A stretch of DNA of 63,247 nt, the filler included, from Sphacelaria rigidula (taxonomy: Eukaryota): assembly GCA_964200075.2 (NCBI GenBank). It is 5 parts of 5 records of this genome, joined end to end, with 100 filler letters (N's around TTAATTAATTAA, not from the genome) between each part and the next. Parts side by side here need not be neighbours in the genome. Positions count along the whole stretch, not along the records: positions 50,681 to 63,247 come from CAXNAA020003619.1; 4 more parts are not named here. One strand, given 5' to 3'. This document shows positions 7,085-63,247 of the stretch, piece by piece. Every line of letters begins with the position of its first letter. The stretch's first letter is position 1. The notes below the pieces were generated by a model. That model was not told where the DNA came from. It saw nothing but the letters and a program-made list of their open reading frames with translations, and ran no database searches. Made by a program: the position numbers and the translations under genes.

Positions 7085-7376
7085 GGTGAGGGAAAAATGT
7101 GAGGGGTAAATGAAGGTGACATGAATTCGTTAGGTACATTGGATAGTAGCGAGAAAACGATCGTTTCACACGGAGGTAGATGGTGGTCACACACGGCGAA
7201 ACAGGAAGGGGATAATGTATATGAAAGGTGCTTATGTAATGTATGGGAGAAATTTTACTAGCGCTCAAATGTTGGAGGTTTCTCCATTAGGACTAGGAAC
7301 GATGCTCCGTCTCGAAAGGAGCACGTGGTCATTGGTCAAACGACTAACGCAAGCAACAAATGAGTACGCCCCTCCC
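7085..7376 (+). mobile_element. 3' fragment of the same LINE family as 855-2950
   Basis: Similar to the reverse complement of about 860-1140; ends TGCTCCGTCTCGAAAGG...GCAAGCAACAAATGAGTACGCCCCTCCC. Confidence 0.85.
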
Positions 7377-7794
7377 TTTTCACCCGATCCATCACTCGCA
7401 CTATGTCATCGAATACTACTCCGTATAACAGAATTTTCTCCACCGCCGTGCTCAGGACGACGGTGGAAAATATGCCAGATAGAAACGGCGCTGTCTCTGT
7501 CCGATATTGAGCTAGCCCGACAACTCTCCGATATTCACACGCACACAACCCCGCATCACATTGTGGACTTTTGCGATTGACTGCGATCGTTGTGGCGAAA
7601 AATTCGGACCTCGCAAGAAAGGTCCAGGGGAGAGTGCGGTCGACTGTGTCATACGCGGTGGCTGGGTCATTGTGTTGCTTGGGAAACTCCGCCATCAGAT
7701 CACTCAATGACTCAACAGTCTTATGGTGAACTTATGGTGAACTTGGTGAACTTTCTGTGACCAACAAAACTAGTTGTACTCTTGAGCCCGAAAG

Positions 7795-12744: not shown

Positions 12745-13527
12745 CACGTTCATCAGGATACATATCTTCTTCTTAGTGTCTAGGTGCGAGTCTCTGAGGA
12801 TCACGTCCATCTTGCCTGTCTGTGCCTTACCCTTTTTTATCACTTTATTTATGTGTCCATCCCAAGAACAGTTTCTTGAGATATCTATGCCAAGGTATGT
12901 ACACTGGTCTAAGATCGGTAATTCCTCTTCTCCCCACTTCCATTTGAACTCTACCGGATTCTTCTTATCTTCGTTACAGACGAGTACCGCGCATTTGGTA
13001 ACGTTCATCACTCTCCATTTCCTAGTGTATTCCAAAGACTTTTCTATTTGCTGCTGCAACTCTTCTATTGTTCCTCAAATCCTCACAAAGTCATCCGCGA
13101 ACATCAATGTTGATACCATATCTTCACCCACCTTGACCCCTTGCTTTGCTGCTTATATTGCTGTTATCAAGTCATTGATAGATACCTTGAACAATGTGTG
13201 TGACAACGTACATCCTTGTGCAACTCCTTGCAGAATATTAAAATATTTCGATATTTTCCCGTCTAGTATCATGGCACTCTTGGCACATTCTGTCATCTTC
13301 TTCACCATTCTCCACATCTTTCCTCTGATCCCAGCTTCCCACAACGGTTTCCCCAGTCCATTCCTCCATACTGTGTCGTGAGCCTTTTGCACGTCCAGGA
13401 AAAAATAGTACCCTGTCAGCCTGGTGTCTTTCCTACCCTGTATAATCTTACGTAGTGTGCTACGTAACTACGGTTTGCTCTAAAACCTGCTTGTCCCTCA
13501 CTGACTTTGCCTTCCTTTTCTAGCATG
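12745..13527 (-). mobile_element. Second degenerate LINE RT fragment, same family as 855-2950
   Basis: QKAHDTVWRNGL, QGVAQGCTLSHTLF and EYTRKWRV..CTYLGIDIS; collinear with about 1850-2630. Confidence 0.92.
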
Positions 13528-26295: not shown

Positions 26296-26825
26296 GGTAT
26301 TGTGAAATGTCAAACCTACGATACGTACGATACCAGGGTACTTTGAGATTCCAATACCTACCGTACCCGCCTACTCCGGTATTTTGAAATATCATATCTA
26401 CGATACGTACGATACCAGAGTATCTCGAGATTTCAATACCTACCGTACCCACCCAATCCGGTATTTTGAAATGCCATACCTACGATACCTACGATATCAG
26501 GGTATTTCGAAATTTCAAAACCTACCGTACCCGCCCAGTTCGGTATTTTCAAATGTCATACCTACGATACCTGCGATACCAGGGTATTTCGAGCTTTTAA
26601 AACCTACCGTACCCGCCCAATCCGGTATTTTGGAATGTCATACCTACGATACGTTCGATACCACGGTATTTAGAGATTTCAATACCTACGGTAAAATGGC
26701 CCAATCCAGTATTTTGAAATGTCATACCTACGATACCACGGTATTTCGAGATTTCAATACCTACCGTACCCGCCCAATCCGGTATTTTGAAATGCCATAC
26801 CTACGATACCTACGCATACCACGGT
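26296..26825. repeat. Minisatellite, unit about 82 bp, about 6.5 copies
   Basis: GGTATT(T/G)TGAAAT-like unit starts recur at 26296, 26378, 26460, 26542, 26624, about 26708 and about 26781. Each unit contains TACCTACGATAC and TACCTACCGTACCC. Confidence 0.9.
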
Positions 26826-28359
26826 AGAGGATACCCCCGTAAATACTGGGGGTACGTTCGGTACGGTTCCTCACCAACGGTGCCTGTGGAATATTTATAT
26901 AGGCCATGCAAACGAGGATTTGTATTGACGTTTTTTCTTCCCACCGCGAAGAGCGAGGCAGAACACCACGTAATGACACGTTACGCCATCCGTTTGAACA
27001 AGAATATAACATCATGGGCGACACCGAGTTTGCCAGCGGCGAGTGAGGCACATGACGTGGGTGAGCTATGGGCATGTGTTCCCGGGATGAGCTACTGGGC
27101 GCAGCTGATCTGCTCACGCTCTCCCCGGGTGAGCTATAAGAGCTGCGTGAGCTACACGTGTTTTGTCTTGGGTGAGCCATTGAGTGTAGGTCATCCGCAT
27201 ATGTTTCCCCTCGGTGAGCTGCAAGAGATGCGTGAGCTACACATGTTTTTATCTGGGTGAGCTACCAAACCGTAGCTCATCAGCGCACGTTTACCGTGGG
27301 TGAGCCATCGGACGTAGCTCGCATGTACATATTTGTCTACAAGCAAGCTACAGCGTGCAGTCAAGCTAGCTCATGAGCTGCCCGATGTGTGAAAATACTA
27401 TACCGAAACAAGGACTGGCGCTCACGGCGTGTCTTTTCTACTTGCTTTCGATCGAACGAAAAAATTGGGGCGGAATCGATTCGATCGACGTCGTTCGTTT
27501 TGCGCGGTTTGGGCCCTCCCGAATTTGCAAGTTACGATCGACAAAAGTTAGTGAAAACTGCGAAGCGGTACTTGAACTCTTGTAATCCGTACAGTCAGTA
27601 CTGCCTGTACTGTCTGCGTGTCGTAGTGTGTGCGTCTCGTACAGGAAGATGTGAAAACGAAGTCTGCGATTCCCCACCCGACAGGAATCCTCGAAAACAC
27701 CCCATCAGTCTGGCCCCAAATATAAGCAGGATTTGGACATGCGGCACAAAAGCTCTTGCAGTTTCAACTTTTTATTTCGACTATTTTTTCCCATCGTCTT
27801 TTCGTGACGTGATCACGAGACTGTCAAAAGCCGTCATTTTCCCAAATAGGACACTCTGCACAACAGCAGCACCCGAAGCAGGGGCAAACAGATCTCTCGC
27901 ACGGTAAGCGCCGGGGAAAGACCTTCCGATCTTCGGATGGACATGTCCGTTGCAGCAGGCGCTGCTGGGAAGGTGCCGAGACAGAATCTGCCTGAAAATG
28001 AGATACGCCAAGTAGTCTAACCCTAACGCTAACCCTACCCAGGGATGCTATAAAGTCATCCCCCGCGTCACCCAGGGGATTTTTTGCCCCTCCCCCCCTG
28101 CTCCGACTTGAAAGGGATGCGTGGTCAATGGTCACACCACTAAGGCAAGCAACAAATGAGAGCGCCCCCCCCCCCCGCACCCAAAATGCAAACTTGATTA
28201 TTTCAGCGCTGGAACTGCTGCGCAGTCACTCTATCGCGGTCCATCCACATCAGGTTTATTATTGCCGAATAAAAAATTCCGCTCATATTTCGGGCCAGAC
28301 TTGTATAGCACGAAATACACATGACAGTTCACGGAAACTCTGAACGGGTTCACGGGGTT

Positions 28360-37646: not shown

Positions 37647-37912
37647 GTGAGGACGTGTAGTTTTTGCTGAGGAAATGTACAACATGTTTGCTTATTTCTT
37701 TTCGACCGCCACCTACGAACTTCAAGGCAGCTTGTCTGGGGTATATCAACACGCGAGTGAGAATCCTGATGAAAGTCCCGCTGTCTCCCCTTCCTTGCAA
37801 ATATTCCCCCCCTTTGCTCCGTCTCGAAAGGGATGCGTGGTCAATGGTCACACGACCAAGGCAAGCAACGAATGAGTACGCCCCCCCCCCTCTGCAAGTA
37901 CAAAAGGCGAGG

Positions 37913-50680: not shown

Positions 50681-52228
50681 ATAACGGGACTGACGTACGG
50701 CTGGAATACGACCTATCGCCCATATCACGCACATCGAGAACGCCTTCTATATAAGCGACTGATATCCGCCGTCACAGAAGCGGTGGCTTCAATGAAAGCT
50801 GTGACCTACACGATCAATTTGACACAACATCACTTGATCGCAACTACGTAGTCAATCCATTGCAACAAAAGATTCCCTCTATCAGGAAAACCCGATTGGT
50901 GCCTGAAACAGCTTTAGTTCCGAAACGCCCCCCCAGGCGTAAAAGTGCTTTGTGCTGTATCTCACTAACCAGACCGCCGAAATCCTCGAATGGGATACTG
51001 TACGGTAGCTGCATGCACAGCACGTGTGCTCAAGCAAAAAATAGAAAAAGAGTTTCCTGTTAGGAACGCTAGAGCATCCACCCTGAATCTGAAACTACCC
51101 TCTGAATCTCACGAATAGGGTCTTCCGAGCGCGTCACGGCGAGAAACCCAGTTGAGAAATAATATTTTGGCTTTCACCTCCTATCCGCGCCTAAGGCTTC
51201 GCATAATTCCGATTTTTGCGCCTAAATTCTGCGATTTTGAAGACGCATATTTTTGGTGGTGAAACGCATCGTGGGCATATCATGCACATAAATTGCGCAT
51301 ATAGCCTATGCGCCGCCTGCGGCCACTGTGCAGATGCCTTTGGAGGTGTTCCATGTGTCTATGTGGCATGACAAAACCGCATGTAGACTGGGTTGGACCA
51401 TGCCATGTTCGAGATTCAGAATCATTCTTTCGTCATAATACCGCACGCCTTTTTTTACGAACGTGTGAATGTAGGACATATGTATAGACAGCAGTATGAA
51501 AGTCCTTGACCGGTTTTGAGCCCGCAGTCAAGTGCATGCAAAGTCAGTAAAGTATGTAACAGTATGTCTGCGACGAGCACCTTTCAGTTTTCGTAGTTAC
51601 ATGCACGCTGCTGATGTCTCTGTTTCGTGTTTCACAACAACACTACAGACAGTGTGAAGGTATGCTGGCAACGCAAGAAGGGTCAGGTAGACCCGAAAGA
51701 CTGCGAGCAGAGTCTTTAGTTCCGAAAATCAATGGTCCTTGAGCTCTCCGGCTGTTCGTCGAACCCCCCTGCCTTCTGGAAACCCGTGAATGTTCCTGGT
51801 CTGTCAGCCGGTGAAACTGTTCCGAGGCGGATCTCAGCCGCGAAATAATACAACTGGGTACAGTAATCGATTTCAAGATTCAAACTTGTACCGGTTGTTC
51901 CTGGATGCGCCCTCACGAGTTTACACCCGTCCGTAGCCTACTACGGATCAATTCAGTCACACATGTTGAGTATTTTCGCTGGGTACGACGGCAAGAAACA
52001 GTGAGCCGGTATGTGACGGCCGACGCTACAGTAAAGCACAGTCACAGCAGGCTGTGGTAGCACACATTTTCGGTCTATTTTGACGTCGAGCTTACCTAGT
52101 ACAGTACTGCTGTATTTTGTGTGAAATCTACATAATATTATGTTCGCTTTGGTACACGCCAGTGGGAGCTACACATCTACCCAAGCTTGGCCAGCATTTC
52201 ATTTGGCGACGAGATATAAGATACTCAC

Positions 52229-52827
52229 GTGGTATTCGATACCGATGGAGCACCCGGGCTCTTCTTGGCGTTCTCAACGAGGTTCTTCGACACACCAGAC
52301 GCTCGTGTGAAAAACCGATTACACACCACGCCGTCAGAAGCATGCATTGACCCCATGTTTTTACCGGGTTTCTGATACGGCACGTGCTCTCGAACCCAAG
52401 CCAGTCTTGCTTTGCGCGCGACGACACGACTGAGGTCCTCTTGCTCCGACGCCAACCTCTAAGCATCAAGCGTCCCTTCAACGAACCGTTCAACAAACCG
52501 TAGACTGCGGCAGCACTCGAAACCTGATGCAAGCATATCTTGCAGCGCAATAGGCTGTGTGCAGAGAGTTGCACCTGCCACTGGAACGATCGACTCGAGA
52601 GGGGACTGCTCTTGCCTTCTTTTTGGAGTCAAGCCGCCCGTATGCCCACATGATTCGATGCTCCGCTCTGTGGGTTCAACCGAGGTCGCGAAAAGGAGGC
52701 GGCCCGCCTCTGTAATCGGCATAAACGCACGCCCCACACTGATTCCTCTGGTGCATGAGTGTTTGAGAGTAGGTGGTTCCAATACGTTTATGGTAGCATG
52801 GGCGGGGTGGTCATGTTTGGACAGCAA
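52229..52827 (-). pseudogene. Chapaev/CMC-like DNA transposase N-terminal exon with one in-frame TAG
   Basis: ORFs 52459-52827 and 52225-52455 are in the same frame: FECCRSLRFVERF...DA*RLASEQ...RKARLAWV...VVCNRFFTRASGVSKNLV. A Cys cluster followed by VCxxFFxxxxGxS is typical of Chapaev-type transposase N-termini. Donor GTGAGT at 52228. No DDE domain is visible before the contig edge. Confidence 0.5.
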
Positions 52828-53405
52828 CGACGATGTTGGCGTTGTTCCACGTTTAGATCAATCTTTGCGACATCACGTATCAACATGCGCTGACCGTCAG
52901 GATCCCGGGACAAATATTCTGTGGTCCTGTGTACAACTGACCATGTGCACCCGAAGCGTGATCAGAGAATGGGACACATGTCGACAAATATCGGAATCTT
53001 TAGGTCTTTTCACTTGCCTGCCTGGTGAGATTGTGTCAGTGGTATGGCACCTGACACGCGGCAAGTGGGTCACTATTCTACCGGAAGTGGAGCTCGTAAG
53101 AAAGACACCGTCGTACTATCTACTAAGATATTATCGAAGAATATGGCTTATTAGTACTCATGCGAGACTGATATGACCCAGATACGTTGTCGAATTCTGA
53201 GTACAGGTGGCGTTGTCGGTAAAGGTGGGTAACGTGTCCCGATCGTGACCTGCAACTAACCGCGATATTAGAATGTTCTCGCCGTCCCTTGCTCTACCCC
53301 CCTCCCCTCCACACCCCCCCCCCTCCCTAACACAACCCACTGCACTGCCGCGCGCAGGCTGCATACCAAACCAGTCAAGACGCAGGCAACCGTTGTTTCA
53401 GCCTA

Positions 53406-53817
53406 ATGGATTTCCCTGATGTCAGAAGTCAGCCCTCAGGGACAGTAGCGCCAGTACAGCGGAACATGACAACCCTTCTCATCAGCCACTACGTAGGTAT
53501 GTTTCCGATAAAGTTATCTCAAATCGCCGTGACGTCCCTCACCCGCGAGCTGAACCCTCGTGGAGTGGAGAAGGTCATCACTTCGTTGAAGTCAAAGGGG
53601 TGGCTCACGCACAATCCGCCAGCCATAGTGATGCCACATGAAGGTGTCCCGGAGGATGGAGGAATAACGTCGGAGTTTCCCTCTACGTGTCAGTTTCGCG
53701 TCTTGGAAGGAAATCATTGGATCTCCGCGGCCAGATCGATTTTCGAGCAAAATCACTGCGTGCCGTGTCGAGTGTATCATGAATTCGGGCCAGAGGTCAC
53801 GCGAATCCTTGGAGACG
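53406..53817 (+). CDS. Exon 1 of ParB-PHD-MTase-like gene: ParB/Sulfiredoxin-like N-terminal domain
   Basis: TRELNPRGVEKVITSLKSKGW...PPAIV...FRVLEGNHWISAAR...VPCRVY matches the ParB-N pattern (R..n...v..l..S...G...P.iV...dG.HR..A), with GxHR read as GNHW. Donor G|GTGAGT at 53818. Confidence 0.75.
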
Positions 53818-55600
53818 GTGAGTCACGCTATTGACCGATGATATTGTCTGAAGCCACGTGCCTCCGCAATCGTTTCGAGAGCGATGAACTATCTGATGCA
53901 AGATGAAAAGTTGTCGCACGGCCTAGTGTTTAAAAAATGCCAACATAATGATTAGGTCATCCGATTTAAGCATGTAAAACAAAGTGTCGGGGTTGAGCGT
54001 GTAGGCTGTGCATGAGGATGAGGACCCCGTCCTCCGCCTGTCCCGGCCAGGGATGTCACGACTGATCTCATTGGGGGGGGAGGGTTGTTGTGGCTGCACA
54101 CTAGTTTAGCGCCAGAAATTCAGGCCCGGCCTCTAACACGGCTCGTCCGCGGGTCTATGATTCAAACGACGGTTCGCGTGTGCCTGAGGTGTAGACTTTG
54201 GATCCTTGGCTACTTTTCCTCGTGTTTTTCCGGTACGGTTTTCATACTTTTCGCCTTTTTTTTCGTTTTCGCCGCATTTTTGTTCTGTTTTTGCGCCTTT
54301 TGTTTTGTGTACCTTTCTTCTTTTTCAGCCCCTGAAAAAAGAAAATCGGCGCCTCAAATGTTTTTATGCGCCTCTTCTCTTTTTCGGGCTCTAAAAAAAC
54401 ATTATGGCCCTACACTTCGCAGACACGAGCATGCCGGCACATATATCTTTGCTTCGGTGCTTGGGTGCTTCTGGTTGTTGTCTTGCATACATATGTTTGT
54501 TGGCGAGATTTCGTACGTCTCACACGCTCAATGTCGTCCCTGCGGGAAATATCTGCGAGCCTTGCGACAAATCTACGATGTTGTCCCGAAAGTCCTCAAT
54601 TTGTATCCTTTGTTCTGCGATAATGTTTGACGTCCGGTTTTCTCCGACAAAAGGCAGAAATCTGTTTCGTTTCTCGCTTCTTTTGTTAGTCTCGGTGAGG
54701 TGGACCCTTCTCGCATTTTTGTGCATGGCAAGGCTGTGATTGGTCCAAACATTTCGTCATTCATAATCTTCACCTTGTCTCTGGGCCCTTTGCGAAGAAG
54801 TGGCGGCGGGGGGGGGGCAGTGGACGATCGTCATCGACGGGACGTGTTTAAGTGCATTTTTTCAGACCTTTCGTTCAATTCTCAGATTCCAAATGAAAAC
54901 AAAACAAAGCACATTCCAACGCCAGAGTTCTCAAGTAACATGCAGTCGGACTTACATTTTTCCGTTTGTCGCAACAATCGACAGCTCGGCTGTCGACATT
55001 TATCATGCTGATTCTTATGGCAGGCAAGAATAACCTGACACGAGCTGTTAATGTGATCCACATGCGCCGGGTTTCGGCCCAAACGCAGACACCTTCGAAT
55101 GTCGTGCTTCAGCCGTCAAGATTATTGCAGGACACCTTCGCGTTTTTCTGGTAGCCGTTTTTATTTTGGCTGAACGAACAACGTTGTACACGATTGTTGA
55201 CACCTGCGATTGTATTGCTGCACTCGTTGAGACGGTTCAAAAACACCTTAGCGTTTTCCGGTGGCCGCAGGTGATTTTTGCAACAGTTGCATTTTTGCCC
55301 AAGAGCGGTATGTTGGATAAAACACGGGGTGTTTTGTTTCCCGGCTGACCGTGCTCGGACCAATATACGAGTCTGGCAAATGTTAAACCTCTGCCCGCCT
55401 TCGAACGCAGAGTGTCTTGGGATCGTCCGAGCGAATACAGAATGACATATGAAGGACCAAAGAGACGACTTTATAGATTTATATTGTTGTTGCCCAGCAT
55501 CAGCTGCGTCAGAGAGGGAATGTGTTCGAATAAAAAGTCTGGAACATCGGAGAATAATAACCGCGTCAAGCGTCGCTGCTGCCTACATGCCTTCGAACAG

Positions 55601-55743
55601 CTACAAACGATGTCGGCGAGACTCTGTCCCCCCGCAACACGTACGTCAAGCTTTACATGTACATTGGGATCGTTACCTCGGTCCAGGAGAGGACGGGGAG
55701 TGATGCCGTCACGGGGGAACAAATAGCAAAGGAGTTCACGAAC
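55601..55743 (+). CDS. Exon 2: ParB N-motif and first helix of ParB-type HTH
   Basis: Acceptor cttcgaacAG. A phase-1 join to exon 1 gives ILGDATNDVGETLSPRNTYVKL...VTGEQIAKEFTN. Donor GTGAGT at 55744. Absent from the ORF track. Confidence 0.7.
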
Positions 55744-56217
55744 GTGAGTTATGGAATGTGAAAGACGAGGTACTACAAAACCGGGTCTGCATCACACGGG
55801 GACGATAGTGGTCATTGGGTGGAGTTTAAAGTCGCCTTGTATCATGTGTGCGCCGCGGGCCATTTATGCTACATCTCGGAACCGAGTCAAGTCCGCCTAT
55901 ATTGTTGTAAACTAGTTGCCGGAGAGTTTACGACGCGTGTACTGCGTCTCCCACCCGCTCACACGCCGAGAAATAATCCAGTGTGCAGCGAACACGACAG
56001 ACCTCGACCACGTATGTAATGCAGCACGCACGACGGTCGCAGTGAAGTTGCCGCTCTGGAGCGGGGGGGCGACGATTCGAATCGGGGATCGGTACCGATA
56101 TTCTGTTCAGTCGGGAAAAGTTGTGTACGGTAATATGAATCATTTTGAACTTCCACGGACGCTGAAACGGCCGACTCAGATTCACCGCATCTGCTATATG
56201 TTTTTCTCCACGGTCCG

Positions 56218-57426
56218 ATGGTGTCCCCTCGTTACCGAAAACAGCTGGGTTTGAATTCTCTGTCGCTGGTGACGATGCGGCACTGGCGAAAGGCCTGCTT
56301 CGCCACTACACCGGAAGCAATGAAAGCCATTGCCTGGGCGTTCCAGACGTCAGACCCCGGTATCGACGCGAAATGTATTTCGCTGACGTACCTGAAGTGC
56401 AAGGCTTACGGCAATCTACACGCCAAACCCGCAGCGCAATCGATCGCCGTCAATATGCTCGTAAGGCATGCACCGCCGGTACATCCAGTCGCTTGTTGTG
56501 ATAATCTCGAGTTATCTTCCATTAATTCGCCGCACCGAAGGATGACGACAGTGTGTCATGTGGTATGTGTCCTGTTTGATGGACCGTCAGGACCGATTTA
56601 TCCAGAGTATAACTACACATAACCCCCCCCTCCGCTCGAAGCAGTATACTTTCAAAATTGAGGATAGATTTTTTGGTAGAGGACGAAGCTCGGGAACCTT
56701 TATAAACATCGAAAAGGTTTCGAAATTGAAATGAAAAAGCATTCTCCGGCTGTGATGTGTGATCTCACTCATCGTAGCAAACAAAATATAAGATCAACAG
56801 TGTTTTGTACCGGAATCACTGGAGGACGATATCGTTCCGTATAAACACCGGAGGTCACGAATTGCGGATGGCTGTTTTCGAGGATGAGCGAGGCTACACA
56901 TCACAGGTGGAGAATGCAGATGTGTCTTTATTTCGAATTTATCGCGATGCTTATGAAAGATCTCATACCCAACATACCCAAACAACATTCATCCTCGATT
57001 TGCGACCGTACCACGCCAGACACGTTGTCTTGCTTGGACGGGCAGGTTTAAGGAGTGAGTGCCGTTAACCTGTAGCCCGGCCGCCGCCCGAGATAAGGCG
57101 CTAAGGCGCTCTGTCTATATCGAGACCACGTAAGCATGCGCCACCGTGTACGTAAATATCCCTGCATACTAGTCGATCTGTCACAGAATGTGGTGCGACG
57201 TTTGATGTTTTCGATTCCGATTTCTGTGAACAGCGGCGTGCACAAAATGATAGACGGTACGTACGGGTTGGAAGATTTCCAGCTGTTCGTGGGGGACTAT
57301 ACATCGTCCGTGAACAAGACTATATCAGAGACAAGAGAAAGCCTGCCGGCTGAAGAACAGGAAGGCGATATTATGAAGGAATTCGAGGCGGTCTACAAGG
57401 GAAGACTTTCACGGCCATTTGAGCTG
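56218..57426 (+). CDS. Middle exons (about 56218-56460, about 56793-56906 uncertain, 57187-57426): HTH second helix and helical region
   Basis: Donors at 56461 (GTAAGG) and 57427 (GTGCGT); acceptor tcacAG at 57185-57186. The acceptor for 56218 is non-canonical or damaged, and the 56.8-kb exon limits are uncertain. Confidence 0.45.
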
Positions 57427-57697
57427 GTGCGTTACTCCCCGTCGGTAGTTGACTATATCCTAAGAAAGTTGAGGCATATATTCGCTGTCGCGAGCTGATC
57501 GGTGACCGGCCTCGATGCTCAGGCACGGAAGTCAGCTGTATCTTTCCCGATAGTACTGGTTGAGGAGTGTAAAACACCACCGCCCACATACATCTGCACT
57601 CCAGAGACAAAGTGAAGACTTGCTGCCGTTGTCCCTTATTTTGTATCTTAGTTCATACTTGACATTCCAGAGATCTTGCCCTCACCGCCGTTCGCAG

Positions 57698-58318
57698 ATG
57701 ACACAAAGAGGGACCCTCAAGTCTTTCAGCGAAACGTGGAGGAAAAAATGGAACGCGATAAACGACAAGACAGCGCGTTTAAAACTCGTGGGTGGCGGCG
57801 GCGAGGAAGATGTGAACGACGCATCCGTTGGGGAGGCCGACGGCGAGGGTGAGGAGGGCCGGGACCGCCCAGCAGCGGGTAGTCGCGAGGGCAAAGTGTG
57901 CGAGTCGTGCAAACCCACCCTAGACGTCAGGTGAGCGTGAAATTAACGCACACAGAGTATCTAGTCGATGGGCGGACACCGAGAGACGCACACATCGACG
58001 AAGGCATTGCTCGCGAGACTGTCGATCGATTCGCCGCCGACATATATTCCTCTGTCCCCCTTCCCGCAGGTACCGATACACGCACTGCAGGGTTGCACAC
58101 CATACGTTCTGCGACCTGCTCGTCCCTATCTCAGAAGATGCGACTCAGGCCGAGCGAAAAAAGCACCTTGGCATATCGTGCGAGGGCGAGCCAGAGCGCC
58201 GGAAGAGGAACAAATTTCAGGATCCAGCCGAAGACGGCGTTACATCAAATAGCGGGAAGAAAGCGAGGAAGGCAAGAGTTCCCCGACCGCCCACCGGCGC
58301 CACCATGGAAGAGCAAAG
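57698..58318 (+). CDS. Exons 57698-57930 and 58070-58318: acidic linker plus PHD-like zinc finger
   Basis: A phase-2 join gives VCESCKPTLDVRYRYTHCRVAHHTFC...KHLGISC. This is C4HC3 spacing with two Cys positions read as Tyr (TAC) and Gly (GGC). Confidence 0.6.
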
Positions 58319-58419
58319 GTGCGAAGATCGACTGCTGCCGAGATAGCCGCCCCCCCCAAACCGGCCAAAAACGTGCACGGAGACGATGATCACAGTTGCC
58401 GCCAAAGCTGGGTTTGTGC

Positions 58420-58610
58420 TGTACGACGCGACTTATGAAAATTTGCGAGAGTACGCCAGGATTACTATTCCAATGTGCTAGGGATATCCCGAATAAATCT
58501 GCAAACGGGGATGCCCTTGCCCATATTCTTCTGCGTCTAGATAATTTAGGAGCCCCTGAACCAGACAAAATTTCGCGAAAAAAGTGCACCCCTACCGTAG
58601 CATTGCTCTA
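58420..58610. mobile_element. Intronic fragment of the 8341-9690 TIR family
   Basis: Reverse-complement matches to about 9280-9380 and about 8572-8645. Confidence 0.75.
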
Positions 58611-59626
58611 TAGACCTCTGTCACCCAAGATCAGATTGCCATGTGGACTCCTCCCATCACGGGCATATGGACTTCAGCAGCTTCAGTTATTTATGTATTG
58701 ACCCTCAGCATATTACAGGAGAGCAGGACCATAACCTCTCCCCACCAGAGTGGCAAAACCAAGCCTACTCGCCATGGAGGTCGCCATCACAGAGTCCGGC
58801 AACCAGACCCGCAACTCCACCTACAATGTCCCTGACCTTAGGTAACAATGGTGGCTAGGTCTACACACACGGCTCTCATGAGGGCGAAATTGCTGCAAAC
58901 GAGCCCAATAGTGGGATCGTGGCCGGTTCGTTGGGTGGTGCCGGTGCACTTTTTGTGGGGGGGGCTATCTCGGCATTAGTCTATCGCAGATCCAGACGAG
59001 CGTTTCCTCTTGTGAAAACAGTCGCCAGTGAATTTCACCTTTTCAGCACGTGTCTCTCAGCGAGTGTCCTTGATCACATAACCCTTACTTCCCCGCGGAT
59101 ACCCCAACGCAACAAATGACCAATCGGTTGGCAACTATGGCTGTGTAGCGTTCATACTCTCGGAGTACACCGTGAGAGTGTTCCTACGTCAGGGTGGGAG
59201 AGGGGAGGGGTGTGGCGGCGTAAGGCAATACCATAGGTCTTAATCAGACCCCAGCACTCGATACATATTGTCATCTTCTATACTGTGTTTGTTACCACGC
59301 TTATAATACTTGCGGTTTGTTTGTGCCGCGATTCTTCGAATTTGACAAAGTGCCGATGTAGCCCCCCCCCCTCCCCCCCCCCCCAAGAGTTGCGCCCGTT
59401 ACAAAAACACAGCACAGGTGAAGGCAATGAGATCGTACATTAAAGGGAGTAGGTGATAACTGCAGGCTAATAAAAATGAAATCGAAAATACGTAATGATG
59501 CCCCGTCGGGTAGGGTGCGTGTTTCGACGGTGCTTTTGTTGTCTGCCTCAGGATCGCACTTTACCCTCGTTCTTCCATCGGATATCGATATGTACCGTGT
59601 GGAATGGCCTTTGTTTTTTCGCACAG

Positions 59627-61569
59627 GCGCAAGAACTCCACCACGCACGCGGAACACCTACTTCGTAGAGGGTGTGAGCTCATCGATGGAGGCGACTCAC
59701 TAGCTGTGGCACGCCAGCCGAAGCTTATCCTCGTCTCCTTGGATGCCGAGAAAAGCATCCTGACACTAAGAGACGACCACGTCAAGAGATACTTCAAGCG
59801 GTTCGTGGGCAAACTACTGAGCGCCTTGCATCCTTTGGGGACGATCGCATTTGCCGTGCTGCGGCCGTGATTTCCGCATGGGAATCGAATCAGAGGTACC
59901 ACCGCACACGCAATACACAGAGGGGGAAATGCGGGATTTGAATGAAGGTGGTACGGAATCGTTTGGTACTAAGAATTGTAGCGAGAAAACGATCGCTATA
60001 CTCGGAGATAGATGGTGGCCACAGAAGGGGAAGCAGGAAGGGGATAAGATCTGTAAAGATTTTTGTGTCATGTATGGAAGAGACATCATGAGTGCCCAAA
60101 TGTTGGAGGTATTTATTGGGTGTAGGAACGGTTCTCCGGCTGAGTGTCGCGCGGTCAATGGTCAAATGGCGAAGGCAAGCAAAAATGACCATGCCCCCCC
60201 CCCNNNNNNNNNNGGGGGGAGGAAACGAGGCCCTGGCCCCCCCCCCCCCCCCCCTCCCCGCCCGACCGCCCCACCCCGCCCCGGCCCTCGCTGTCGCCGA
60301 CCCGTCTGCACCACGTCACAGACGCCATCACTCAAGACCACACCATGGCGCTCGAAGAAGACCCTGTCCTCATCGAATATTCCAGCAAACACGGGGGCTC
60401 TCGGAAGAGAGAAAAGAAATTCTATTTCTACCCGCATCACGAAGCCATCATGGTGGCCCACAAACGGTTAGAGCAAGAGGAAAAATGTTTCACGGTGAAT
60501 CAAAGGGTCACATTTGCCGACCCCTACGGCAGCACAATCAAGGTAAAAATGCCAGACTGCTGGAAGAAGATTAGCGGCGGGCAAACCGAGATGTTGACGT
60601 ACAAGCAAGGAGCTCCGGCCGGCGGCCCCGAAAATTCTTTCCCCCCGGGATTGTCGCGCACCTTCGTCTGGAGGTGATGGCGCGTCTGGTGGTTAATGGA
60701 AGGCAGCAGCCACCCCTCGTGATGTTGTCAGACGGTTCAGTCATAGTCGATATTTGTATGGATTGGTAGTTTTCAAACCGTGTACACTCGGTCCTGTACC
60801 ACTTTTTACTCCGATATGTTCGATCACCAAACTGTTGGGTCTTGTTTTTTCTCCCTCGTACTAGCGTATGGGAACTCGTCACGCGACAAGCGGGTGGTTG
60901 TATGTACTATTCTACCAGGGTAGCGTGTCACGAAAGGTGCAGATACATTCGTTGAGCGACGAATCTCACAATCGACCACTCTGCGCGGATCGCGAGGTCT
61001 CACTTTTGCGTCGTTAATCCAGCGTCGTTGCCTCTTCATATCCATGAAGGTTCACCAACAAGGGCGACGCTGTCCTTGGTGTTGGGCTCGAGAGTACACA
61101 GCTGCTGGAGATCGCCCTCCAAGGTGGGCGCCCTATCGAGCTCTTTCTCTCAGATGCCAGTCTCTCCGTCGTGGTGCATGATCACATAGAGAAGACGTTC
61201 CAGAAAGCATCCTCCTCTGGGCTCTTCAAGGTACAGAGAGCCACACCACGGCTAGGCGGTATACATGCGAATATAAACGTCGTGTTCCCTGATTGCCGTA
61301 GCGGCGGGTCTTTATGCAGGTGTAACAGGTTTTCGTTTGTGAGAGGTATCATCAACTCTCATCAAACTTTCAAACTGCCGCTGGGCTCGTTTTCACCCTT
61401 TATTTCTCGACAGCACGATATCGGCGGCGCAGTGTATGTGGGCCAAGGGTTGCTCCCGTCGAAGCTGCCGGCCGACACGACCCCGCCGGCATTGCTGACT
61501 CCTGCCGCCCGTACTTCTGCTGAAGAGGTCATGAAGACCGCCGTGCAGCCGTTCGGATACACAGTGGAG
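59627..61569 (+). pseudogene. Exons 59627-59895, 60322-60673, 61050-61230, 61414-61569: beta-class DNA amino-methyltransferase-like fold, one in-frame TGA (59868-59870)
   Basis: All junctions are GT-AG and phase-compatible (2,1,2,0). The motif order ELIDGGDSL / KLILVSLDA / LLSALHPLGTIAF / HHEAIMVAHK / SFPPGLSRTFVWRFTNKGDAVLGVGLESTQLLEIALQGGRPIELFLSD parallels the N6_N4_Mtase consensus lihGD / DLI.tDPPY / LkpgG / hE.ilv..K / FP..L...I...t..GD.VLDPF.GSGTT..aA...gR..iG.E. Confidence 0.72.
59917..60203 (+). mobile_element. LINE 3' fragment inserted in an intron of the MTase-like region
   Basis: Similar to 7085-7376 and ends in a C-run; lies wholly inside intron 59896-60321. Confidence 0.85.
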
Positions 61570-62389
61570 GTGAGAGTGCTTCGGGCGAGACAAACTGTGT
61601 TAATATGGAGTCTTGTTTACTTGCTTCTTGGCCGTTTGAGGGTCGCACAGTGAGGACAAGATGGTGATCAGGCTAGCGGGCACCTACGCACCAGTTTTGT
61701 TCATTTTCATATTTCTTGACGCGTTTGCAAGTGAAATATACTTTCTCTGTACCATACAAGAGGATACCCTAAATTGTACGGGCCCTTCACCTTGCCCGGA
61801 TTTTGGTCCGATCTTTTTATTATATTTTTGGTCAACTTTCGGTTGAAAGCATATTTTGTCTACATTTGGTGCTGCTTCGTACGAATGAAAACAAATAATC
61901 AGGCCCGAAAATGACCGCACACCTTCCTTTCTAAACTCCAGAGAAAAACAACATTCGAAAAAAACAATGAACAATAATCACAGTCGCGAATCAACCACTA
62001 GTTTTACGTATCACCGTGTGCTGACCCCGCTGCCTTCTTAACTGACAAACCTTGCTGGTAAAACCAGCGCTGTTCGGCTCGACAACGGCCAAAACCTTCT
62101 ACTAGTGCTTCGAAATAGTAGAATAAGTGCGATGCTCGGGTATATTTCGGCCCATTTAAAGTAAAGAACTCGTTATTCAAGGGTCTGTAAAAATATATTT
62201 TGGGACACGTAGGCCCCAAAATCGAAAATTCGAGTTATTGGGTGGGGGGAGGTAAGGGGGGAGGGGACACCCAGCCGTGTGTCCCCTGGTTTTTCGCCGT
62301 GGCGTTGGCGGATGTGGTCAGCTGCCGTAGATAGTAGAGATCCTTATACATTATATATAACAGGTTATATTCCATATATTATATATCAT

Positions 62390-63247
62390 ATATTTCATTT
62401 CATATACTATATTAAATATACTATATTGAATATATTACATATCATGTATTATGTTTCATATACTATATGTAATATATTTGTACCATATAATATAGGTCAA
62501 TATTACAGGTCTGCATTACACATATGCTTCTTTTTCTTGATATATGCAATATATTTATATATTATATACAATATATTTATATATTATATAATTATATATA
62601 AATATGAATATTCATCAAGGGGCAGCATATGCTACATTATATAATTAAGGCAAACGTCACAGTAGGGTATACCATGGTGCATTAGCGACAAACCTGGGTA
62701 CCCTCTTTGTTCGGAGGATAAATGAGAGCAGCTGATTGGCCAACGACATTTTCACCCGGCGGCGGCGGTAGACGGCCACGGTGTACCTTGCTGTGACTCC
62801 TTTTCTCCCAATTGTACCCACATGTGACGGGACATCAGTATCTTCCATCGGCCATCTTCGACGCAACAATCGCTTCCCGCCCTCAGCAAAGGGCCCCAAA
62901 ATACAGATCTTACCGCTGCAAACAACCATGCAGCCCGTGCAGAATATCGTGATACATATAATATATTTCATTTCATATACTATATTAAATATACTATATT
63001 GAATATATTACATATCATGTATTATGTTTCATATACTATATGTAATATATTTTGTACCATATAATATAGGTCAATATTACAGGTCTGCATTACACATATG
63101 CTTCTTTTTCTTGATATATGCAATATATTTATATATTATATAATTATATATAAATATGAATATTCATCAAGGGGCAGCATATGCTACATTATATAATTAA
63201 GGCAAACGTCACAGTAGGGTATACCATGGTGCATTAGCGACAAACCT
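62390..63247. repeat. Direct duplication of an AT-rich block at the contig end (period about 570 bp)
   Basis: About 62390-62696 is nearly identical to about 62963-63247, apart from a roughly 20-nt indel. Confidence 0.9.

Follow-up and report, generated by a model that had tools for sequence, protein, structure and literature searches.

A decayed, divergent pair of a ParB-like and a four-cysteine gene in a multi-copy, probably transposon-like repeat of the brown alga Sphacelaria rigidula

Introduction

Does a head-to-head gene pair in the genome of the brown alga Sphacelaria rigidula, one member of which resembles ParB, belong to a DNA transposon that carries its own chromatin effector? The question was raised by a first-pass annotation of a stretch of 63,247 nt (assembly GCA_964200075.2), hereafter the window, in which a minus-strand exon with a cysteine cluster was read as part of a Chapaev/CMC-like transposase and a neighbouring plus-strand exon as the ParB part of a ParB-methyltransferase cargo gene. 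The window consists of five contigs of about 12.5 kb each, which are connected by artificial joins (N44-TTAATTAATTAA-N44) and have interspersed repeats in common. The gene pair under study is located in the fifth of them (contig 5; 50681–63247, 12.6 kb; CAXNAA020003619.1).

We conclude that the locus is probably a dead copy of a module of two divergently transcribed genes, namely a ParB-like gene and a gene of a four-cysteine (Cys4) family, within a multi-copy, transposon-like brown-algal repeat. Both our findings and published work are consistent with a repeated element that has a ParB-type effector beside a divergent second gene, so that this kind of element is no longer new.

The divergent gene pair

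The start codons of the two genes, a minus-strand ATG at 52722 and a plus-strand ATG at 53406, diverge and are 683 bp apart, so that the minus-strand exon and the ParB-like exon indeed form the head-to-head pair that had been proposed. The end coordinates given for the pair in the first-pass annotation, 52229 and 53817, coincide exactly with the ends of the two putative exons, with a GTGAGT beyond each of them (Table 1). Neither open reading frame (ORF) is a chance frame, because the minus ORF has 43 relatives (best full-length relative P0006, E = 5.9e-29, 39% identity) and the plus exon has a relative at E = 1.4e-74. The closest database proteins of the pair are "unnamed protein products" of S. 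rigidula.

Relatives of both genes exist in the databases, and both genes are broken in the window copy. The minus gene carries a nonsense codon and has lost a cysteine, the plus gene shows a frame change and a TAG, and the earlier suggestion that the two genes had decayed was therefore correct. The window copy is dead and without a function of its own.

The spacer between the two ATGs may hold a shared promoter. A C-rich tract (53297–53338, two 21-nt units) lies 70–110 bp upstream of the plus-gene ATG and may be a promoter or 5' untranslated region element of the spacer. Tandem Repeats Finder and a repeat search in and near 52600–53500 revealed no tandem or inverted-repeat array, and no parS-like array in the spacer.

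Copy number and linkage

Contigs from the sequencing runs X1, X6, X7 and X8 were placed on contig 5; that X6–X8 represent RNA is only a guess. On 9.5 kb of contig 5, 14026 X1 contigs were found at ≥ 90% likeness and 2350 at ≥ 99%, covering all 30 bins, and at position 52259 alone 19 different X1 contigs carried another letter. The S. rigidula relatives are encoded on three different contigs (8181, 11384 and 8704 nt). With this copy number and these three contigs the stretch is therefore not a single-copy host locus, and the view that it is multi-copy was confirmed.

Pairing of the two genes may also be conserved elsewhere. The ParB-like protein P0003 and the minus-family protein P0006 are Logan proteins that each occur on 2 contigs, in both cases with a longest contig of 6314 nt, and very probably lie on the same contigs.

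At the beginning of contig 5 the summed X1 depth reaches about ten times the value seen over the gene pair, and 61 contigs terminate at 51117; the stretch 50681–51117 is therefore a different repeat. It starts about 1.1 kb downstream of the minus exon and cuts off what lay beyond. A possible further minus-strand exon at 50805, suggested in the first-pass annotation, has no protein relative by tblastn and falls inside this different repeat, and was dropped.

The plus-strand gene

Exon 1 lies in an ORF at 53331–53834, begins with the Met at 53406 and ends at 53817 before a GTGAGT donor (53818–53823). It shares 88% identity with the S. rigidula protein P0002 (E 1.4e-74) and 50% with the more distant relative P0003. 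Its 137 residues were modelled with AlphaFold2 from a three-sequence alignment (predicted local distance difference test, pLDDT, 66.3), and the model was compared to the PDB with Foldseek. Of the 220 matches that this search returned at E ≤ 10, 6 had E ≤ 0.001, and all those listed among the best 45 were sulfiredoxin (Srx), ParB, PadC, Noc, KorB, SbnI or pNOB8 ParB-N chains, with probabilities of 0.99–1.00, template modelling (TM) scores of 0.42–0.52 and E values reaching 5e-4. At the level of the predicted fold, the model therefore supports the naming of exon 1 as a ParB exon.

The conserved form of the nucleotide-binding motif in the ParB/Srx superfamily is G-x-x-R or D-G-x-H-R. It is kept only in P0003, which carries D-G-N-H-R within V-L-D-G-N-H-R-V-S-A-A, and is absent from the window copy and P0002 (Table 1). 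In the ESM Atlas the plus exon fell next to fungal DUF3723 clusters (0.95; 180 and 175 of 256 features shared) and to a cluster (0.93) in which 11% of the members carry ParB_N, both of which we treat as leads. By sequence, the plus exon had no Pfam match at E ≤ 1 or E ≤ 10, including PF02195 (ParB N-terminal) and PF12520 (DUF3723), and no match in the PDB; NCBIfam gave no match for five proteins, and neither a ParB helix-turn-helix nor a dimerisation domain was recognised in the plus gene.

The gene continues beyond exon 1. Mapping by tblastn of P0002 and P0004, with splice sites read off the DNA, yielded at least 7 exons from 53406 to at least 59895, with S. rigidula proteins as the closest relatives. 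Three joints were seen in run contigs, all of them GT..AG: 57425/57697 (X7, X8), 57928/58068 (X6, X7, X8) and 58316/59625 (X7). None of the three was present in any X1 contig. The spliced X6–X8 contigs differ from the window by about 6–10% and therefore stem from spliced paralogues and not from the window copy; paralogues of the plus gene are thus probably transcribed. P0003 reads through G-D-G|E-L at the same position as the exon-1 donor of the window, which fits a conserved intron position.

The exon at 57698–57930 differs from P0004 by a 1-nt frame change near 57893, and a TAG at 57921–57923 (R-A-N-P-P-stop) is found where P0004 reads R-A-N-P-P-Y (residues about 303–316). N-P-P-Y is a form of catalytic motif IV of N6A/N4C DNA methyltransferases, and its occurrence in P0004 may mark the remnant of a degenerate methyltransferase domain. 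With Pfam at E ≤ 10, neither P0002 or P0004 nor any of seven ORFs further downstream in the window matched a methyltransferase, and three downstream ORFs had no match in the PDB by sequence, methyltransferases included. As no such domain was detected, we do not call the gene a ParB-methyltransferase, and of the methyltransferase half of the proposed cargo the N-P-P-Y of P0004 is the sole trace. A 2-oxoglutarate (2OG) oxygenase domain was likewise not matched by Pfam in the six frames of contig 5 or in P0004 and the downstream ORFs.

The peptide that precedes the 57235 exon in P0004 (…NLVERLESVVPRLA…) seems to be doubled in the window, at 57178–57234 and at about 56950–57049, and the second NLVERLESVVPRLA-type copy, near 57000, matches the upstream sequence of an X6 contig. 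This suggests a small internal duplication or an alternative exon.

The minus-strand gene

The minus-strand frame 52857..52225 is open except for one in-frame TAG (52459–52461) and holds VCNRFFTRASGVS and the CC cluster. Since the aligned relatives begin at a conserved M-P-[IL]-[TS]-x-A-G, the start was set at the Met codon 52722–52720. The exon codes for an N-terminal peptide that is conserved (MPITEAGRLLFA), then a linker modelled with low confidence and finally a CC-x4-C ... C domain, which holds a beta-hairpin and a pair of short helices.

Relatives were collected with HMMER (E ≤ 0.001) among 1.84 billion representative proteins. All 43 are 72–292 aa long, and 24 reach E ≤ 1e-10. Twenty-five of them were aligned; the 18 omitted were P0005 (a partial model with a frame change) and 17 short fragments or weaker matches. 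Four cysteines (C135, C136, C141 and C199, forming C-C-x4-C and a later V-C) were invariant in 25/25 aligned relatives, alongside L, P, G and V positions. The AlphaFold2 model (pLDDT 82.9; 94/165 residues at ≥ 90) starts with a short N-terminal helix and the low-confidence linker; four helices come next, and a beta-hairpin leads into a final two to three short helices. Judging from the cysteine pattern, this domain of about 100 residues might bind Zn, and the hairpin-helix-helix unit of the model points to possible DNA binding.

Known families gave no match. The minus ORF had no Pfam family at E ≤ 1, and across 26 aligned family members 11 Pfam families were each hit by one member (best E 0.0035), none of them shared. 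The family profile had a single PDB match (E 2.1), and Foldseek of the model found none of 51 matches at ≤ 0.001 in the PDB (best E 3.7) and none of 141 in BFVD (best E 1.1). A word-index search of longer proteins, with the minus ORF as query, returned no match, and the ESM Atlas placed P0006 in unnamed clusters only, with low recognition. The minus gene thus represents an unannotated family with a confident predicted fold that is unmatched in both libraries searched (PDB and BFVD).

In X6, X7 and X8 a variant of the minus gene was observed in which 120 nt (52495–52614, containing the Cys cluster) are swapped for 7 nt, and at this site 38 residues are missing from the S. rigidula model P0005. 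A deleted subfamily of the minus gene therefore exists and is probably expressed.

The end of the minus-strand exon

The stop codon of the minus ORF, TGA (52225–52227), sits inside G|TGA|GT. The chance of GT[AG]AGT over a stop is about 0.01, and three donors of the plus gene have the same or nearly the same hexamer. Among the 43 relatives, all of which were inspected at their C-termini, 3 are without the V-C motif; P0007 was not counted, as the pattern matched in the wrong place. Twenty-six relatives end 30–42 residues past the V-C motif, and 15 of these 26 have a terminal Arg, compared to an Arg background of 9.2% (p = 8.6e-10). Such a pattern is explained by ORF calling across a phase-2 ...AG|GTRAGT donor, which gives AGG followed by TAA or TGA. 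Because of the terminal Arg and the GTGAGT over the stop, we consider it likely that the minus ORF is only the first coding exon and that the gene extends further. Since the ORF is likely cut at the donor, the short relatives are no argument against a larger protein.

To find a second exon, the tails of 16 relatives were compared by tblastn to the window and to each other, and none matched below E = 0.3. Cover by X6–X8 downstream of 52229 is far below that of the exon, while X1 cover continues; this fits an intron or flanking sequence and was not counted as evidence.

Table 1. Features of the gene pair and its surroundings on contig 5 (window positions)
Feature	Position	Strand	Details and evidence
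Minus gene, first coding exon	52229..52722	-	43 HMMER relatives; AlphaFold2 model; start by alignment
Probable phase-2 donor, GTGAGT over TGA stop	52223..52228	-	DNA read; exon would end at 52229
Nonsense TAG	52459..52461	-	P0005 and P0006 have Gln there
TTT (Phe) at third Cys of CC-x4-C	52495..52497	-	Cys in 25/25 relatives
Spacer between divergent ATGs	52723..53405		683 bp
Plus exon 1, ParB/sulfiredoxin-fold domain (predicted)	53406..53817	+	P0002, 88% identity; AlphaFold2 and Foldseek
Arg to Trp, TGG in G-N-H-W	53718..53720	+	P0003 has Arg (D-G-N-H-R), P0002 Glu (G-N-H-E)
Plus exon 2	55601..55743	+	AG acceptor, GTGAGT donor; tblastn of P0002
Plus exon 3	56245..~56472	+	3' end not fixed; 8 residues more than P0002; tblastn and DNA
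Plus exon	57235..57426	+	GT..AG joint 57425/57697 in X7, X8; tblastn of P0004; splice sites
Plus exon with frame lesion and TAG	57698..57930	+	Run contigs; tblastn of P0004; splice sites
Plus exon	58070..58318	+	GT..AG joints on both sides; tblastn; splice sites
Plus exon, frame in window copy not settled	59627..59895	+	Joined to 58318 in one X7 contig
Different, far more abundant repeat	50681..51117	.	X1 summed depth and contig ends

Other repeats in the window

The intron at 58319–59626 contains an insert resembling a miniature inverted-repeat transposable element (MITE), with 35-nt inverted arms (58326–58360/58951–58985) that are 83% complementary. The bin 58313–58630 has by far the highest summed X1 depth (364,233), with numerous contigs ending at 58429 and 58608. 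Parts of the MITE-like insert recur in contig 1 (8570–8632 and 9271–9376).

A repeat of about 290 bp is common to contigs 5 (59919–60201), 1 (854–1143 and 7088–7377) and 3 (28099–28175 and 37815–37890) at 73–89% identity; the two copies in contig 1 are inverted and about 6 kb apart. The end of contig 5 holds an AT-rich satellite with periods of 14, 28, 42 and 56 (62365–62605 and 62953–63157), located within a direct repeat of about 315 bp that is 92% identical (62380–62695 vs 62953–63247). In contig 3 a tandem array was seen by self-BLAST only (26296–26826); its units measure about 82 bp, and shifted copies are about 84% identical. Contigs 1 and 2 have a 786-bp stretch in common (1848–2631 vs 12745–13526, 81% identity), and long ORFs near it had no Pfam match. 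Pfam also found no family in ten long ORFs of contigs 1–4.

Discussion

In the reading that we prefer, the product of the plus gene would have a ParB/sulfiredoxin fold in its N-terminal 137 residues and would belong to the same class as the ParB accessory proteins of giant DNA transposons in algae, for which binding and perhaps modification of the element that encodes them has been proposed. On the opposite strand, 683 bp away, the minus gene would contribute a first coding exon with an N-terminal peptide, a linker and a four-Cys domain of about 100 residues. Its ORF would stop at a conserved phase-2 donor and would probably be the 5' end of a longer protein, the remainder of which would lie off the contig and might be the transposase of the element or a second accessory protein. 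The two products might act together, and the repeat that carries them might be mobile.

Published elements offer several points of comparison. The excerpts of a survey of Ectocarpus describe giant KDZ, EnSpm and Sola-1 elements with often pseudogenised transposases and extra transcribed genes (PMC12477816; Genome Biol 2025). In these excerpts, an accessory gene on the opposite strand of Sola1-1_Ec32 encodes a protein of 1104 aa with a DNA-binding domain resembling ParB as well as a DNA methyltransferase, for which the authors propose binding and modification of its own element (PMC12477816). As far as these excerpts describe it, Sola1-1_Ec32 resembles our locus in its brown-algal host, the ParB-like N-terminus, the position on the strand opposite a second gene and the long multi-copy element with often pseudogenised genes. 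It differs in that our plus gene has no methyltransferase by Pfam and our minus gene no transposase homology, and the likeness is one of description.

Similarly, excerpts of a preprint on the red alga Bostrychia moritziana report a Plavaka element (EnSpm/CACTA) with three accessory genes: PAG1, of unknown function, PAG2, an N6-methylase with SET, and PAG3, with a ParB-like N-terminus (by HHpred only) and a 2OG oxygenase, adjoined by tandem arrays of inverted repeats (bioRxiv 10.1101/2025.02.11.637652). PAG2 and PAG3 are there also reported from Zisupton and Fanzor-encoding elements (bioRxiv 10.1101/2025.02.11.637652). With this cassette, as the excerpts present it, our locus shares a ParB-like N-terminus visible to remote methods only, a setting on a giant algal DNA transposon, which is probable in our case, a companion gene of unknown function and mostly degenerate copies. 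Unlike PAG3 in that account, the plus gene has no 2OG oxygenase domain and no adjoining tandem array of inverted repeats, and its host is a stramenopile and not a red alga. Among the papers found on ParB and transposons in eukaryotes or algae, only those on Ectocarpus and Bostrychia were relevant.

In the fungal Starship giant transposons, DUF3723 (PF12520) is a conserved accessory gene, described in the excerpts of the preprint as homologous to bacterial chromosome-segregation genes (bioRxiv 10.1101/2021.12.13.472469). The ESM Atlas is the only link to our plus exon, and in both cases, going by these excerpts, the gene sits on a cargo-carrying element. However, the plus exon has no PF12520 match, and Starships use a tyrosine recombinase, none of which was seen here. 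With bacterial ParB/Srx proteins (ParB, Noc, KorB, PadC and sulfiredoxin) the plus gene shares the predicted fold, and P0003 also the D-G-x-H-R-type motif, but the plus gene is eukaryotic and spliced, has no sequence-level similarity to them and has lost the Arg in the window copy.

What, then, is the minus gene, and is the pair part of a transposon at all? The first-pass annotation took the minus exon for the N-terminal part of a DDE transposase of the Chapaev/CMC (EnSpm/CACTA) type and contig 5 for the interior of a large CMC element with a ParB-methyltransferase cargo. Cysteine-rich DNA-binding modules are common at the N-termini of transposases, which counts for this idea. The exon moreover probably continues by splicing, so that a catalytic domain could lie off the contig, and the red-algal Plavaka, a member of the EnSpm superfamily, carries a ParB-domain accessory gene according to the excerpts cited above. 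However, Pfam-A at E ≤ 0.1 found no family, DDE included, in six whole-frame read-throughs of contig 5, and no CACTA, KDZ transposase, CxC or other family occurred in any contig frame or was shared by the 26 family members. The minus model has no fold match in the PDB or BFVD, and none of the 43 relatives exceeds 292 aa. The DDE domain and the terminal inverted repeats (TIRs) that were to be looked for did not appear: the only inverted repeats in 50681–60203 are 35-nt and 19-nt pairs around 58326–59369, which are intronic and do not bracket the gene pair, although the contig may stop short of the element ends. The single brown-algal precedent, as excerpted, has a Sola-1 and not a CMC partner. 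With no homology to transposases by Pfam, PDB profile or Foldseek (PDB, BFVD), a finding that the first-pass annotation itself had named as speaking against its label, a CMC/Chapaev identity of the minus protein is unsupported, and we regard it as highly improbable. Were the pair instead the Sphacelaria counterpart of Sola1-1_Ec32, a Sola-1 transposase would begin with the minus exon, and the plus gene would be a ParB-methyltransferase that has degenerated. The brown-algal host, the opposite-strand layout and the ParB-like N-terminus would all agree with the excerpted description, as would a pseudogenised copy, such as is reported there for giant Ectocarpus families, and the N-P-P-Y of P0004 with N-P-P-stop in the window would be what is left of motif IV. 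Nevertheless, four residues make a weak argument, neither P0002 or P0004 nor the window ORFs show a methyltransferase domain by Pfam, and the contig carries no DDE domain; we consider this identification unlikely.

The minus gene might also be complete as it stands, a small protein of about 165–230 aa that serves as the DNA-binding partner of the ParB-like protein in a self-contained two-gene module. All 43 relatives are short (72–292 aa), with short, basic tails past the domain; a conserved pairing is suggested by the contig record that P0003 and P0006 have in common, and the conserved N-terminal peptide could serve as a docking motif. A splice donor, though, better explains the terminal Arg and the GTGAGT over the stop, and most relatives were called as ORFs on short genomic contigs, a procedure that would end a spliced gene at its donor. 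We hold a complete small protein to be possible, if rather unlikely. Nor need the locus be mobile: it could be a conserved bidirectional host locus of an ordinary host gene family, expanded by tandem or dispersed duplication. Canonical introns, the fact that both genes are spliced or likely so, the probable transcription of paralogues and the lack of any visible transposition machinery would suit such a family. Very high numbers of copies and variants in one run would not, nor would the lesions in several copies (that of the window, P0004 and P0005 as models with frame changes, and the minus form of X6–X8 with 120 nt reduced to 7 nt), the other repeats nested in introns or the ParB-domain genes of algae reported on transposons in the excerpted sources. 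This makes an immobile host family distinctly improbable. A recent viral insertion was rejected, given at least six canonical introns in the plus gene and a small-protein model without a BFVD fold match.

We therefore retain the reading of a dead two-gene module in a transposon-like repeat, against which several findings have to be set. Neither a transposase nor a TIR was found on the contig, and only copy number and precedent speak for mobility; the plus gene has no detected catalytic domain, be it methyltransferase or 2OG oxygenase, and no repeat array lies beside it, unlike PAG3. Pfam, NCBIfam and the PDB searched by sequence are all blind to the domain of the plus exon, and its model is only middling in confidence (pLDDT 66.3 from three sequences). 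Outside the window, linkage of the two genes consists of matching contig statistics, and scans of viral, metagenome and prokaryote contigs returned no locus. The minus gene has only short relatives (43 of 43), and if the conserved terminal Arg is the genuine C-terminus, about 165 aa make up the whole protein, which is then no part of a larger enzyme. Of the original idea of a transposon with a ParB-type effector, the match to giant algal transposons as described in the published excerpts stands, while transposase homology and methyltransferase found no support.

It was not until 2025 that giant transposons of algae were recognised to carry ParB-domain genes. What the Sphacelaria locus adds is a partner from an unannotated family with a confident but unmatched predicted fold, and a ParB-like gene without a recognisable enzyme domain, in a pairing that may be conserved. 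Should the minus gene be the 5' exon of a transposase, its domain would be the DNA-recognition module of the element. If the pairing is general, it would offer a concrete two-protein system in which to test for the self-recognition of transposon DNA. A bolder suggestion, which we put forward as decidedly unlikely, is that the family with Cys4 and hairpin-helix is a dedicated and conserved partner of eukaryotic ParB/Srx-fold proteins, the two forming a portable "ParB plus specificity factor" module that is independent of the transposase superfamily and by which giant elements recognise, mark or tether their own DNA. If true, this module would be a eukaryotic analogue of plasmid partition and self-recognition, built on a DNA-binding fold without a solved or predicted viral counterpart and used by giant DNA elements of stramenopiles and perhaps of other eukaryotes.

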